Part shown: positions 1 through 64,000 of the stretch, in pieces | Layout of the letters: each line of letters opens with the position of its first letter | Numbering within the stretch: the stretch's first letter is position 1 | NCBI GenBank assembly: GCA_963754325.1 | Contig: CAVWFP010000002.1 | Span: 970,521-1,034,520, forward strand | DNA: 64,000 bases | Reading direction: 5' to 3' | Source of the DNA: an uncultured Verrucomicrobiae bacterium | Lineage (GTDB): Bacteria; Verrucomicrobiota; Verrucomicrobiia; Chthoniobacterales; UBA10450 | The notes under the pieces: model-generated | Told to the model about the DNA's origin: nothing | Databases searched by the model: none | What the model saw: the letters and a program-made list of their open reading frames with translations, nothing else | Program-made: the position numbers and the translations under genes

Positions 1-167
1 GAATCCTTCCCCATGGACCATGGCATGGCGATGTTCTTAAACGAGTGATAAGCCTCGCGAAAAATGAAGACGCTCTGGTTTTCCAGGACATCGAGATTTG
101 AGCGATTGGGCATGAGACTGTGGGTATCTTCTACTTGCGGCACCCTCCTGCAACCATACGTTGCCGC

Positions 168-704
168 ATGAGCGACGTCCGGCCGGCTGCCTACGACTCG
201 AAAATCGAGGGCAACATTATCTTTACTCGGCTCGATGCAGCTCTCAATTGGGTTCGCAAAAATTCTCTCTGGCCAATGCCAATGGGCCTGGCCTGTTGCG
301 CGATCGAACTAATGGCCACCGCCGCCTCCCGGTTCGACATTTCGCGTTTCGGCGCCGAGGTCATGCGATTTTCACCCAGGCAATGCGATGTCATGATCGT
401 CGCCGGGACCGTGACCTACAAGATGGCGCTGGCGGTCAAACGGATCTACGAGCAAATGCCCGAGCCGAAGTGGGTCATTGCCATGGGAGCCTGCGCCTCC
501 ACCGGTGGGATGTATCGGTCTTACGCGGTTTTGCAGGGAATCGATCAGTTGATTCCGGTCGATGTCTACGTCTCAGGCTGCCCCCCGCGTCCCGAAGCCT
601 TGCTCGAGGGCCTGATGAAATTGCAGCAGAAGATTTCCGGAGAAAAATCCTTTACCGGGCAAAAGCCGGAACTGGTCGCGAAACTCGACGAAGCGCTCCG
701 ATGA
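168..704 (+). CDS. nuoB: NADH-quinone oxidoreductase subunit B
   Basis: ORF 120..704. The translation has the NuoB cysteine motifs [17 protein letters not shown] and [12 protein letters not shown] at 168 is preferred over GTG at 120. Confidence 0.9.
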
Positions 705-59770: not shown

Positions 59771-60012
59771 TTACATCTGAGCCGCGACCGGTTCAACCGC
59801 GAAGTTAATCAACGCGCCGAAAGCAGTTCCTTTCACATCCTCGTTCTATCCGATCGCCTCTCGAATCGCTCGCTCCAACGCGTCGATATCGCTCCCGGAA
59901 ACTTCAGTGACCTCCGAAATTCTCGCCAACCGCACCAGGTGGTGGCAATGACCGACGCTCCCGCGCCCGCTACCTCGAGCGAGCGCCACGGCCAGGGTTC
60001 AACACTGCAAAA

Positions 60013-60891
60013 TCAATTCCGCCGCATTCGGGCGATCAACGTGTCTGCCATGGTCGCGGGTGTGTCCGCCACCGCGATACCGGCCGCTTTGAGGGCGTCG
60101 ATTTTCCCCGCGGCCGTCCCCTTCCCTCCGGAAACGATTGCGCCCGCATGCCCCATTCGGCGTCCAGGCGGCGCCGTCACTCCCGCGATAAATGCGGCCA
60201 CCGGTTTACGGCAATTGTCCTTGATCCATGCAGCCGCTTCTTCTTCGGCGGTGCCGCCGATCTCGCCGATGAGAATCATGGAATCGGTCTCGGGATCGTC
60301 ATTAAACAGCTTCACGGCATCGAGATGAGACATTCCGTTGATGGGATCGCCGCCAATGCCGATGCAGGTCGATTGCCCGAGGCCGCGCGACGTTAATTGC
60401 CAGACAGCTTCGTAGGTCAAAGTGCCGGACCGCGAAATCACTCCGACCTTGCCCGGCTTATGGATATATCCCGGCATGATTCCAATCTTGCAGGCGCCGG
60501 GGGTGATGATTCCCGGGCAGTTAGGGCCGATGAGGCGCGACGACTTGCCTTTCATAAGCGCTTTAACGCGCATCATGTCCATCACCGGGATCCCTTCGGT
60601 GATGCAAATGACCAGCTCAACGCCGGCATCGACCGCCTCGAGAATGGAATCCGCCGCGCCGGCAGCGGGAACAAAGATGACCGAAACGTTGCAACCGGTT
60701 TCCTTTCGCGCCTCCCAAACCGTGTCAAAGACCGGGACAGTGTCATCAAACTTCAGGCCGCCTTTCCCCGGGGTCACTCCGGCGACAACGTTCGTTCCGT
60801 AGGCCATGCATTGACGCGCGTGAAAACCGCCGGCGCTGCCGGTAATACCTTGAACGACGAGGCGGGTGTTTTTATCAACGAGGACGGACAT
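60013..60891 (-). CDS. sucD: succinyl-CoA ligase subunit alpha
   Basis: 292 aa. [18 protein letters not shown], and GHAGAI with the phosphohistidine. Confidence 0.95.
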
Positions 60892-60983
60892 GAGGATAGC
60901 TACGGTTGAAACGTTGAAAGCATGAAGGGTTGCAAAGGACCTCGGTTATTTATCTTCATCTAGCTCTTCAACTGTTCAATCCT

Positions 60984-61337
60984 TCAACTCTTTCTTTGGT
61001 GGATCACCAGCTTGTTTCCGGAAGGATCGCGAAACTGGGCCATGAAACAAACTGGCGTTTCAGTCTTGTCCATATCGAACGCCACGCCTTTGTCTTTCAA
61101 ACGTTGCAGTTCGGCCTCGATATCCTCAACTTCGAACGCCACGGTCGTTCCGTCGCGCGAAGGCTTCCAGGCTGGATGACAACCCACTCCGATGGTTGTG
61201 CCGCCGACTTCGTACTCCACCCATGCACCCTCCATGGCACTTGAAGATGGCTTTAAACCAAGGGTTTCCTGATAGAATTTGCGGGATTCTTCCGCATCGG
61301 CGACGGCAATTGCGACGAAAGCAACTTCTTTGATCAT
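60984..61337 (-). CDS. VOC/glyoxalase-family protein
   Basis: 117 aa. Paired beta-alpha-beta-beta-beta pattern, with FYQETLGL and DPSGNKLVI typical of VOC proteins. Confidence 0.65.
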   Translation of the reverse strand: MIKEVAFVAIAVADAEESRKFYQETLGLKPSSSAMEGAWVEYEVGGTTIGVGCHPAWKPSRDGTTVAFEVEDIEAELQRLKDKGVAFDMDKTETPVCFMAQFRDPSGNKLVIHQRKS

Positions 61338-61367
61338 AATCGTAACTTGTTAGGGGGGTTCAACTCC

Positions 61368-62741
61368 TCAACTCCTACTTCCACCTTTCGCGGACTCGTG
61401 TTCCTTGAACCAGTCGGTCAGGATCCGCAGCACCGCGGGGTCGAACGGCTGTTCTTTGCTGTGAAAAGCGTCTTCCATACTTCCGTAATGTTGAAACGTG
61501 TGTCCGGTTGACGGCAGCTCCTTGAAGTGAGCCAGCCCGGCCCTGTTCATGTTAACATAACCAGCCATAAGTTCGCAGTCTTCGCGACTCATGATCCAGT
61601 CGTATTGGCCGTGCAGAACCAGCGTCGGCACTTTCACCCGTGACCATGCTGACGCCAGATTCAATTTTTGAAGTTGCTCGTAGAAAGAGAGCGGCCGGCC
61701 ATAAAGATGACTTCGATCCGGTCCCTCCGGCCAGATTTCCCCCAGGGTTGACCGTTCGCGCACGATGTCTTCCACGGTTCGACCTTTGATGAGCCACTCC
61801 GGGTAAAGAGTTTCAGCGCCTTTCATTCGGTCGGAAATATCTCCGGGTGACTTCCCCAAAAGCGTGAAGCGACGCCGCTCGATCTCAAACATATGCTCGA
61901 GCCACGTCTTCACCCAGCCGCCTACGGACACGTAACCACGGATTCGCGCTTCTTCGGCTTCAGTTTCCGGCACCAGCGGCGCAATTCCGCCGCCGTTGCT
62001 GATTCCGAGCACATAAACTCGGTCCGGATCGATGAAATCGTAATTGCGAACGGCGCGGAAAGCGGCCCGATAACCAGCCAGCTCGGTTTCGAAATCGGTC
62101 TCAGCGCAATTCCCCTGGCTATCCCCCACTCCGGGTTTGTCGACCCGCATGAGAGCGAATCCTCCCATTTCGGCGAGTCCGCGAAAGACGAGTGACGTTG
62201 AGTCGGTCGCTCCATCCGGTGCTTCAACGGTGTCGGCGCTGAGCCAGCCGACCACCAGAATCACCGGCACTTTGCCCTCAACATTGTGCGGCTTCGTTAG
62301 GATCGTTCGCAGTTTTTGCCCTTTTGCCCCGACGACGCTGTCGTAGATGACGTCCGCATTCGCGTATTTCTCGCGCGGCATCTCCGGCAGAATCCCGGTG
62401 AGCAAGCGCGACTGCCCGCCGCGAGAAATGTCGACGGTCACGCGTTGACCGGCGCGAAGGCCTCTGCCGATCTCGGCCAGGTCGGCTCGACTGGCGGGAA
62501 GATGTTTCTCTATATAGACAAGGTCGTCTCCGACCTCGACGTCGAGCGCTGCTCCCAGACTGCCGGGCGCGACGCTCGAGACAATCGATGTGCGCGGCAC
62601 GGGACCGGGCTTGGTCGGGTCGATATCGAGCCCGAGGAAGCCTCTTCGCGGAAGATCCTCTTCCGCAAATCCCAAATCCCAGGCTCCAAATCCCAGGGAA
62701 ATTCCAATAACCAAATAGAGAAGTCGCCTACGCATTTCCAT
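61368..62741 (-). CDS. alpha/beta hydrolase with an N-terminal PDZ-like domain
   Basis: 457 aa. GFLGLDI...GDDLVYI... is PDZ-like, followed by the nucleophile elbow GISNGG and a C-terminal ...GHTF. The first roughly 25 codons are encoded by the inverted-repeat arm. Confidence 0.6.
   Translation of the reverse strand: MEMRRRLLYLVIGISLGFGAWDLGFAEEDLPRRGFLGLDIDPTKPGPVPRTSIVSSVAPGSLGAALDVEVGDDLVYIEKHLPASRADLAEIGRGLRAGQRVTVDISRGGQSRLLTGILPEMPREKYANADVIYDSVVGAKGQKLRTILTKPHNVEGKVPVILVVGWLSADTVEAPDGATDSTSLVFRGLAEMGGFALMRVDKPGVGDSQGNCAETDFETELAGYRAAFRAVRNYDFIDPDRVYVLGISNGGGIAPLVPETEAEEARIRGYVSVGGWVKTWLEHMFEIERRRFTLLGKSPGDISDRMKGAETLYPEWLIKGRTVEDIVRERSTLGEIWPEGPDRSHLYGRPLSFYEQLQKLNLASAWSRVKVPTLVLHGQYDWIMSREDCELMAGYVNMNRAGLAHFKELPSTGHTFQHYGSMEDAFHSKEQPFDPAVLRILTDWFKEHESAKGGSRS
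62666..62691. repeat. left arm of a 26-bp perfect inverted repeat
   Basis: CAAATCCCAAATCCCAGGCTCCAAAT. Its exact reverse complement lies at 63149-63174. Confidence 0.9.
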
Positions 62742-63095
62742 CGCACTTCGAGATGATAGCCGAAAAGATCAACGTTAACTCACGCGCTTCCGTCGAGAGA
62801 TGGTCGCGGGCGGCGGGATTGTCGCCTCCATGCCCCGCATCCAATAGTCTGAGGAACAAGCGGCTCTCCTTCGCTTCTTTCCGACAAATCTTTAGACGCA
62901 TAAGAAAATCTTTTTTACTAAGAGCTTCGTCGGCCTCAATCCAGTTAGCGCCCCAGAGCCTGAGGCCCTAACAAGTTGACGGATATCCTCATCGTTCGGA
63001 ACATGTTGCGGCAACTGCTTGACAAAGCTGCGCACCGCCGCGGCAAACAGGAACGTCCGCTCCTTGAGCCTTTGCGGTTTCTCGCCGTTCTCCAT
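62728..63095 (-). pseudogene. four-helix-bundle protein gene (23S rRNA intervening-sequence protein family) with a -1 frameshift
   Basis: Track ORF 62892..63095 encodes MENGEKPQRLKERTFLFAAAVRSFVKQLPQ...QLVRASGSG. The family sequence continues in another frame (ANWIEADEALSKKDFLMRLKICRKEAKESRLFLRLL...) to the TAG at 62728. The break is at a G4 run (C4 on the plus strand, 62951-62954). Confidence 0.7.
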
Positions 63096-63139
63096 TTGTG
63101 ATTTGAGAGTTACCTGGGCTTGGGATTTGCCCTTGGCCT

Positions 63140-64000
63140 TTACTTGGAATTTGGAGCCTGGGATTTGGGATTTGTCGCGGCGGCTGCCGCCTCAACGACT
63201 TTTTTCGCAGCATCGCCGAGATCATCCGCCGTAATGACCGGCAGCCCCGATTCTGCGATTAGCTGTTTGCCCTCCTTCACGTTGGTTCCTTCAAGGCGGA
63301 CCACCAACGGGACGTCCAGTTGGACGGTTTTGGCGGCGTTGATGATCCCCTGGGCAATCACATCGCACTTCATGATCCCACCAAAGATGTTGACCAGGAT
63401 CGCCTGAACATTCTTGTCGGCGATCAGGATCTTGAAAGCAGAGGTCACCTGCTCTTCGGTCGCCCCGCCGCCGACATCGAGAAAATTCGCCGGACTGCCG
63501 CCATTGAATTTGATGATGTCCATGGTCGCCATCGCCAGGCCGGCGCCGTTAACCAGACAGGCGATGTTTCCATCGAGACCGATGTAATTGAGGCCGTACT
63601 TCGACGCCTCAACCTCGCGCGGATCTTCTTCGGCCGTGTCGCGCATGGCAGCGACTTCCGGGTGCCGATAAAGCGCGTTATCGTCGAAATTAAATTTGGC
63701 GTCGAGCGCGAGCACTTCGCCCTTCTTCGTCACCACCAGCGGGTTTACCTCGACCATCGAACAATCCAGCCCGATGAACGTCCGGAAGAGTCCATCGAAT
63801 AACTTGGCCGCGGCTTTGATTTGACCCGGCTCAAAGTTCAATTGCTTCGCGAGTTTTCGCGCTTGATAGGGCGCAAATCCGCCAAGCGGATCGATCGATT
63901 CCCGGATGATTTTCTCGGGCGACTTCTCGGCCACGGATTCGATCTCCACACCGCCCTCGGTGCTGGCAACAACCAGCGGTGCAGCTGTGGCGCGATCCAA
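63140..64000 (-). CDS. sucC: succinyl-CoA ligase subunit beta (the N-terminus lies beyond the window)
   Basis: 286 aa, partial. [24 protein letters not shown] and [10 protein letters not shown]. The last roughly 11 codons ([11 protein letters not shown]) are encoded by the right inverted-repeat arm. Confidence 0.9.
63149..63174. repeat. right arm of the 26-bp perfect inverted repeat
   Basis: ATTTGGAGCCTGGGATTTGGGATTTG, the exact reverse complement of 62666-62691. Confidence 0.9.

Follow-up and report, generated by a model that had tools for sequence, protein, structure and literature searches.

Why should a gene of the four-helix-bundle (FHB) family, to which the proteins of 23S rRNA intervening sequences (IVS) belong, lie between two genes of a sucCD operon, and why should it be enclosed by inverted repeats that both neighbouring genes appear to read as protein? 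The question was raised by a locus near the end of a 64,000-nucleotide stretch of DNA from an uncultured Verrucomicrobiae bacterium (assembly GCA_963754325.1, contig CAVWFP010000002.1, positions 970,521 to 1,034,520), hereafter referred to as the window. The rRNA IVS and their 'S23p' FHB open reading frames (ORFs) have been known since the early 1990s, and neither where they come from nor what the protein does has been explained. The host of the window was identified with high confidence as a soil verrucomicrobium of the Chthoniobacterales, of Udaeobacter-like affinity.

The best overall explanation, to which a probability of about 0.6 was assigned, is that the locus is an IVS-like FHB cassette whose repeat arms have been co-opted by the neighbouring genes and whose transcript would form a stem that may be processed by RNase III. 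The parts of this reading differ in strength: the locus very probably belongs to a family of such cassettes with co-opted arms; the RNA-stem and RNase III mechanism is put forward tentatively.

Inverted heptamer arms enclose an FHB gene

The cassette is bounded by a perfect inverted repeat of 26 nt, CAAATCCCAAATCCCAGGCTCCAAAT, which is located at 62666-62691 on the forward strand and, as its reverse complement, at 63149-63174. Exactly two copies are present in the window; no third copy was found when up to 3 mismatches were allowed, the number expected from 100 shuffles being 0. A preliminary description of the window had reported this exact complementarity, which was reproduced, and a repeat finder extended the pair to 42 nt at 88% complementarity with a spacing of 425 nt (Table 1). 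The same description had held the arms to be made of AAATCCC-type short repeats. They are composed of CAAATCC-type heptamer units, and AAATCCC/GGGATTT clusters occur at just these two spots in the window. The outer 26 nt of the 5' arm (63149-63174) are fully complementary to the 3' arm. An inner leader separates the 5' arm from the start codon; its counterpart is conserved across related loci, and no Shine-Dalgarno motif or promoter-like site was seen in it. Promoter-like or intrinsic-terminator-like sites were not found in the cassette either; with high confidence, it is co-directional with its neighbours and leaves no space for a separate promoter. Both arms carry a derived AGGCTCC unit, the counterparts of which in the closest orthologous locus (L001) differ between the arms, AAGCTCC in one and AGGTCCC in the other, indicating that the window arms changed together recently.

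The enclosed gene had been placed in the FHB family and described as frameshifted at a G4 run, and both statements were upheld. The gene is read in two frames, and one base too few in the C4/G4 run at 62951-62954 accounts for the change of frame; because of this 1-nt deletion, the ORF is not intact. When the base was restored, the product was 122 aa in length and passed the curated cutoffs of both TIGR02436 (1.2e-15, 57.7 bits; cutoff 24) and PF05635 (4e-9, 37.1 bits; cutoff 33.8). Both half-frames are otherwise intact, with 82% identity to an intact orthologue, and the frameshift may represent either a very recent mutation, and hence a pseudogene, or an error in sequencing the homopolymer. 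Thousands of relatives of the repaired protein are annotated as 'four helix bundle proteins' (72-82% identity), many of them on short contigs, and the solved structure nearest to the protein is 2rld. Where the ORF calls of relatives begin too far upstream they read 'QIPNPKSQIPSK', which is the translated upstream repeat. The FHB gene is under purifying selection, with a ratio of nonsynonymous (dN) to synonymous (dS) divergence of 0.07-0.09 where dS was measurable and a dN of 0.06-0.25 where dS was saturated.

The claim that the FHB gene is the sole coding content between the arms was upheld in part: a single FHB gene is enclosed, but the first ~11 codons of the downstream hydrolase gene overlap its 3' end and stop codon (62728-62741). 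A role as a component of a defence system was rejected, since the FHB gene had no PADLOC match, and a phage-borne origin was rejected, since no close FHB relatives were found among IMG/VR viral contigs.

Both arms are read as protein by the neighbouring genes

All genes at the locus are encoded on the minus strand, in the order sucC, FHB, PDZ-alpha/beta-hydrolase, glyoxalase-family gene and sucD. The NCBIfam SucC model stops at residue 273 of the 286 that are visible, 13 residues ahead of the stop codon, and the last 11 SucC codons together with the TAA stop lie inside the right arm. Given where the model ends, these codons and the stop are extra to the normal C-terminus. Of the close homologues of SucC (117 sequences, 82-97% identity), 90 have arm-encoded tails of one to three units, the other 27 stopping directly after ..AAK/AAS.

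At the other end of the cassette, hydrolase residues ~12-25 (14 residues) are encoded by the left arm, upstream of the conserved mature part of the protein, which starts ..EDLPRRGFLGL. Arm-encoded N-termini were found in ~10 of the 27 closest hydrolase homologues; the others have unrelated, ordinary signal peptides before a conserved (D/E)ELPRRGFLGL. The third positions of the arm-encoded hydrolase codons were identical at 13 of 14 sites between the window and L001, compared to 61% in the rest of the gene. Both roles of the arms had been proposed in the preliminary description, the right arm as the last ~11 codons and stop of sucC and the left arm as the hydrophobic N-terminus of the hydrolase, and co-option of the arms into the two predicted proteins was confirmed.

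Co-option in both directions follows from the structure of the arrays. Since seven and three share no common factor, (CAAATCC)n is translated in every reading frame as QIPNPKS and its complement as GFGIWDL, without a stop codon. An element inserted at a gene boundary therefore lengthens the upstream ORF with a polar tail and makes a hydrophobic N-terminus available to the downstream gene; in the window this N-terminus has taken the place of the original signal peptide. Spurious ORFs rich in GFGIWDL or QIPNPKS arise from the arrays at 63120-63407 (+), 62989-63225 (-) and 62588-62718 (+) in the window and at 85-456 (-) in L207, and such ORFs may be annotated as hypothetical proteins by gene callers.

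Orthologous loci that lack the insert, with which a comparison had been suggested, were available. In L262 the order is sucC-glyoxalase-glyoxalase-sucD, without cassette or arms, and in L264 sucC is followed after 4 nt by the hydrolase gene, again without a cassette. In neither of these does SucC have a tail. The L264 hydrolase begins with an ordinary signal peptide (MARALLTRGSRALFVIALALSITMPSTRGLGA, followed by PDELPRRGFLGL) that is unrelated to the 26-residue arm-type N-terminus preceding EEDLPRRGFLGL in the window. Cassette-free orthologues thus do not share the terminal residues of the window proteins: their SucC is short and the hydrolase signal peptide is a different one. In L263 the cassette is present, yet SucC stops ahead of the arm, and groups of SucC sequences at less than 8% distance contain both tailed and untailed members. 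A target-site duplication was not definable from the filled and empty sites (L262, L264), the junctions being ambiguous (shared CAAA) and the original signal peptide being gone in the window. In the close filled/empty pair P0170 and L262, the contig of P0170 breaks off within the FHB start, 56 nt past the SucC stop, so that the 5' junction alone is readable. The cassette-less SucC of L264 (4670-4700) ends ..AASSHSR (agttcccattcccgc), weakly like a degenerate AGCTCCAAATCCCAA arm unit; this could be the remnant of a lost cassette or a chance resemblance.

The gene order of the window was also seen in L001, L002 and L262-L264; sucC and sucD are non-adjacent in this lineage. The interval between them holds one or two glyoxalase-family genes, often the secreted PDZ-alpha/beta-hydrolase gene and usually the FHB cassette; in L262-L264, citrate synthase comes after sucD.

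Table 1. Features of the cassette and its surroundings (window positions).
Feature	Position	Strand	Remarks
sucC, 3' part	63140..64000	-	continues beyond window edge; arm-encoded extension at codons 63143-63175, stop 63140-63142
5' arm (gene strand)	63133..63174	-	A/C-rich heptamers CAAATCC CAAATCC CAGGCTC CAAATTC CAAGTAA ...; pairs with 3' arm in minimum free energy fold
Inner leader, 5' arm to FHB start codon	63096..63132	-	more degenerate heptamer-like units GGGCAAATCCCAAGCCCAGG..CAAATCACAAATG
FHB gene (PF05635 / TIGR02436; 23S-rRNA-IVS protein / Avd-like family)	62728..63095	-	ATG at 63095, stop 62728-62730
3' arm (gene strand)	62666..62707	-	G/T-rich complement TTGGAATTTCCCTGGGATTTGGAGCCTGGGATTTGGGATTTG; read within hydrolase signal peptide
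PDZ-alpha/beta-hydrolase gene	61368..62741	-	start overlaps FHB stop; arm-encoded N-terminal signal-peptide-like segment
Downstream operon context	60013..61337	-	glyoxalase-family gene 60984-61337 and sucD 60013-60891, co-directional with cassette

The cassette belongs to a family that spans bacterial phyla

Related loci were retrieved by FHB similarity, which introduces an ascertainment bias; 80 genomic and two metagenome loci were obtained, of which 74 were testable for arms. The closest came from Verrucomicrobiae, Chthoniobacterales and Ca. Udaeobacter, and further loci from Planctomycetota, Deltaproteobacteria, Acidobacteriota, Patescibacteria, Nitrospirota, Armatimonadota and Bacteroidota. 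The 5' flank of each FHB gene was compared with the reverse complement of its 3' flank, using 30 shuffles per locus that preserved only mononucleotide composition. Inverted heptamer arms that beat all 30 shuffles were present at 66 of the 74 loci, in at least eight phyla, with a median of 41 aligned nt at 80% identity. The preliminary description had asked whether other FHB genes are flanked by such a repeat, and these 66 loci carry arms of the same kind.

At these loci both flanks are made up of tandem C-N-A-A-A/G/T-T/C-C/T/A heptamers, after which comes AAACAAATTCAAATG with the start codon inside it. At the variable position N, Chthoniobacterales have C, T is found mostly in Planctomycetota and Kiritimatiellales, and G prevails in the majority of the rest. 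The two arms agree at N in 44 of 55 cases (C 7, G 22, T 14), the only two-sided change that was documented; the heptamer arrays make alignments ambiguous. According to crude open-frame neighbour calls, the upstream gene was co-directional at 52 of 65 loci and the downstream gene at 51 of 63. A median of 54 nt separates the upstream stop codon from the FHB ATG, from which it follows that the arm starts at or over that stop codon.

The repeat also occurs elsewhere, as had been thought worth checking. A version of the arm with 24 specified bases (the 26-mer with two free positions) was found in 59 metagenome stretches, of which 11 were beside an FHB gene (tblastn) and one, L248, was beside a more divergent FHB gene; several lay once more right after sucC. 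The 15-mer AAATCCCAAATCCCA was rejected as a probe and retained as a negative control: it gave more than 120 viral matches, with an FHB gene in none of the 80 loci returned, and is too short to be specific. Chance or an assembly artefact was rejected as the origin of the layout, since the same layout recurs in independent assemblies.

Some copies have an unusual arrangement or setting. In L031, L040, L049, L060, L065 and L068 the flank upstream of the FHB gene is a G/T-rich arm of the 3' type, with direct-repeat scores of up to 252 (L031), which suggests that the elements occur in tandem or back to back. The contigs that carry FHB genes are typically 0.5-5 kb in length, consistent with repeats breaking short-read assemblies, and the L266 contig (2681-2737) ends 56 nt beyond the SucC stop, right after the 5' arm.

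These results indicate with high confidence that the cassettes form a widespread palindromic family, in which an A/C-rich array of C-N-AAATC type with a short leader is followed by the FHB gene and a complementary G/T-rich array. The family is seemingly undescribed: a full-text search found no literature description of free-standing, hairpin-flanked FHB cassettes, although its incomplete coverage makes this weak evidence of novelty.

Predicted RNA stem and its proposed processing

The preferred reading proposes that the cassette would be transcribed by read-through within the host operon and that its arms would pair in the RNA, forming a stem of ~30-40 bp that closes the FHB-bearing loop, the same architecture as that of ORF-bearing 23S rRNA IVS. 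The stem is a plausible RNase III substrate, cleavage of which would free the FHB mRNA. The same cleavage would separate sucC from the downstream genes in the operon transcript, as 23S rRNA is fragmented by an IVS. The FHB protein, a homologue of Avd, is presumably the element's own factor and might, as a guess, bind the heptamer arrays.

Folding of the transcript had been called for in the preliminary description, and in the predicted fold of a 541-nt transcript (-227 kcal/mol, z = -6.5) the arms pair. The arms alone gave a helix of ~30 bp (-65.1 kcal/mol, z = -10.6), which is long enough for RNase III. In the Coxiella 23S IVS, the FHB ORF is directly preceded by three tandem heptamer repeats (GACAGAT x3), the first of which is where RNase III cleaves (PMC4990558). 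Taken together, the predicted pairing, the helix of ~30 bp and the Coxiella heptamers at an RNase III site favour co-transcription followed by RNase III processing.

Several results weigh against this mechanism. No strand-specific wobble bias was detected, G.U-compatible arm mismatches numbering 134 in the sense and 121 in the antisense orientation (p = 0.45), and transversions made up 309 of 564 arm mismatches. Across loci the arms are typically just ~80% complementary, and the match between the two arms of a locus was only slightly better than their match to arms taken from other same-type loci (p = 0.004), the own pair ranking first in 10 of 74 cases. From this small advantage it follows that most of the complementarity reflects a shared sequence consensus. 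When 10 Chthoniobacterales cassettes were analysed with RNAalifold, two conserved helices of 9-10 bp were obtained, with no compensatory pair. The 5' and 3' arms each have a conserved consensus of their own, with fixed mismatches, a pattern that fits pairing and recognition by protein or at the DNA level equally well. No Rfam family matched 60000-64000 (E up to 1), and a known RNA family was rejected on this basis. Finally, the window copy may be inactive, since its FHB gene is frameshifted, and the Coxiella IVS ORF is decaying and is thought to be untranslated (PMC4990558).

Arm-only elements and the alternative explanations

The alternative that survives best, although we regard it as unlikely, is that the cassette is a mobile element acting at the DNA level. 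The arrays would then be terminal inverted repeats or REPIN-like hairpin ends, full cassettes would be 'autonomous', arm-only hairpins would be deletion derivatives resembling miniature inverted-repeat transposable elements (MITEs), and the FHB protein would be a factor for spread or maintenance; RNA processing is compatible with such an element. In its favour, ~25 of the 48 arm-motif stretches that have no FHB gene are compact hairpins, in which an arm is followed by a loop of 4-91 nt and a complementary arm (fold -60 to -71 kcal/mol), the rest being solitary arrays. These arm-only elements are ~100-190 nt in length. Loci without FHB have a median G+C content of 63%, compared to 52-56% for FHB-linked loci, which indicates organisms other than those of the window's lineage.

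Empty elements made of the same heptamers were also found 1-2 kb from full cassettes on the same contig, with the FHB start region AAACAAATTCAAATG retained (L021 4026-4215, L022 746-898 and L047 4490-4635). In the hydrolase ORF calls P0312 (MNDGEKPRDL joined to GFGIWELGF) and P0299, the first 9-20 FHB residues are fused to the arm-encoded GFGIWELGF or to the hydrolase, and these fusions appear to be footprints of internal FHB deletion. Given the empty elements and these remnants, the arm-only elements look like internal-deletion derivatives of full cassettes.

Divergence at synonymous sites points in the same direction. When the window was compared with L001, synonymous differences amounted to a proportion of 0.51 for sucC, 0.54 for the hydrolase gene and 0.80 for FHB, and among pairs of sucC-linked cassettes FHB was more divergent than the flanking sucC in 41 of 45, being lower in the close pair L003-L012. 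This result hints that cassette content has been exchanged between copies, with codon-usage effects as an alternative, and the cassette may not share the history of its flanks. The mixture of tailed and untailed members in closely related SucC groups, and the many carrier contigs that are short or end inside an arm, also fit a mobile element, as does the patchy occurrence of the cassettes.

Against a DNA-level element, there is no transposase, recombinase or reverse transcriptase within the cassette, and we know of no catalytic activity of the FHB protein. No target-site duplication could be defined from filled and empty sites, the copy linked to sucC has been inherited stably throughout an entire clade, close relatives were not found in viral contigs, and the 64 kb window has no second copy of the arms.

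Two side observations concern such arrays. At 4403-4554 in L014, 1 kb from an FHB cassette, there is a different heptamer hairpin in which (GCAGAAT)n is paired with (ATTCTGC)n around a loop of ~80 nt, so that heptamer-array palindromes come in several sequence families. In L207, a 178-aa ORF that starts like a signal peptide is preceded by a very long A/C-rich array of more than 13 heptamer units (120-255) and followed by a short hairpin made of the same motif (790-880). Heptamer arrays seem to fill many intergenic spaces in some soil genomes of higher G+C content.

It is improbable that FHB is an ordinary chromosomal host gene whose pairing 5' and 3' untranslated regions control its own translation or mRNA stability, with no mobility and no RNase III excision, and that the arm-only hairpins are unrelated REP-like stabilisers of the same motif. 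Such control would suit the A/C-rich leader, which lacks a Shine-Dalgarno motif, and the pairing that in many loci reaches up to or across the ATG. Purifying selection on FHB, the vertical stability of the sucC-linked copy and arms that are conserved in sequence without covarying are also in keeping with it. It is opposed by the recurrence of the cassette, with near-identical arms, at numerous unrelated insertion points and in eight phyla or more, by internally deleted copies that keep both 'untranslated regions', by the existence of filled and empty orthologous sites, and by FHB synonymous divergence that is out of step with that of the flanking genes.

Lastly, that the window copy is an inert relic, with a decaying FHB gene and arms kept solely as coding sequence for the SucC tail and hydrolase signal peptide, would accord with the frameshift, the translation of both arms and the likewise decaying Coxiella ORF (PMC4990558), but is very improbable given ORF halves that are intact apart from one base and 82% identical to an intact orthologue, arms that are perfectly complementary over 26 nt and share the recently derived AGGCTCC unit, and unusually conserved synonymous positions in the arm-encoded codons (13 of 14).

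Relation to known elements

The IVS-like cassette was compared with several known systems. Like the ORF-bearing 23S rRNA IVS of Leptospira, Coxiella burnetii and Xanthomonas ('S23p' ORF), it has terminal inverted repeats and a long stem that closes a loop with a PF05635 ORF; a total length of ~430-510 nt, dependence on host transcription, a decay-prone ORF and the existence of short versions without an ORF are further points of agreement. As in the Coxiella IVS, heptamer repeats lie upstream of the FHB ORF, those of the window and related loci being CAAATCC-type units. In contrast to the rRNA IVS, the window cassette is located between protein genes of the sucCD operon and not in 23S rRNA (helix 9, 25 or 45), its heptamer is C-N-AAATC, its arms are translated into neighbouring proteins, and its excision by RNase III is a prediction. 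None of 144 related loci had similarity to E. coli 23S rRNA; a location in 23S rRNA was rejected, and the cassette is thus IVS-like and not an IVS. The analogy drawn in the preliminary description therefore stands for the stem-closed FHB loop and the Coxiella-like heptamers upstream of the ORF, but does not extend to a position in rRNA.

The Avd protein of diversity-generating retroelements (bAvd, PDB 4DWL) belongs to the same FHB superfamily (PF05635-like; CDD cd16375-16377). Avd is a small pentamer that binds nucleic acid and reverse transcriptase and is encoded by a selfish or retro-element. Unlike such a retroelement, the local region of the window has no reverse transcriptase, template or variable repeat, or long direct repeat; the neighbours within 3 kb are sucC, the hydrolase gene, the glyoxalase-family gene and sucD.

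Neisseria Correia elements, ERIC and REP/REPIN-RAYT sequences are palindromic repeats that lie after stop codons, are co-transcribed, form long hairpins, which in the case of Correia elements serve as substrates of RNase III, and can supply adjacent genes with coding sequence. A gene flanked by repeats that are also scattered as short hairpins recalls the RAYT genes flanked by REPs. The cassettes differ from bacterial MITEs and REPINs in that the arms are tandem heptamer arrays, the cargo is an FHB protein of non-enzymatic appearance and not a transposase, no target-site duplication was found, and the spread is across phyla. Cyanobacterial STRR are heptanucleotide tandem arrays in intergenic regions, and TGACCAA/TTGGTCA-like units adjoin FHB genes at a few loci (L065, L068). 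We found nothing documented that connects STRR with FHB genes or with inverted arrays, and no dedicated test of such a link was made.

Implications

A broader proposal, which goes beyond the family described here and which we consider doubtful, is that FHB genes with inverted heptamer arrays constitute a hitherto unrecognised class of selfish palindromic elements that spans phyla. The FHB protein would be the factor that binds the arrays, as RNA or as DNA, arm-only hairpins would be the non-autonomous members, and ORF-bearing 23S IVS would be copies that landed in rRNA. Polar tails and signal peptides would be donated to neighbouring genes as a by-product.

For annotation and assembly, the practical consequence is that metagenome contigs tend to break at the heptamer arrays. 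For protein evolution, the locus is a clean case of repeat DNA turned into protein parts, namely a SucC tail that is present in the majority of close homologues and a replacement signal peptide. If a heptamer-array stem with an FHB ORF is common outside rRNA, there would be thousands of natural variants to study, among them full copies, copies with a frameshift or an internal deletion, and orthologous sites both with and without the cassette. Such variants make testable both the role of the arms, as an RNase III stem or as DNA ends, and the binding partners of FHB/Avd-like proteins.

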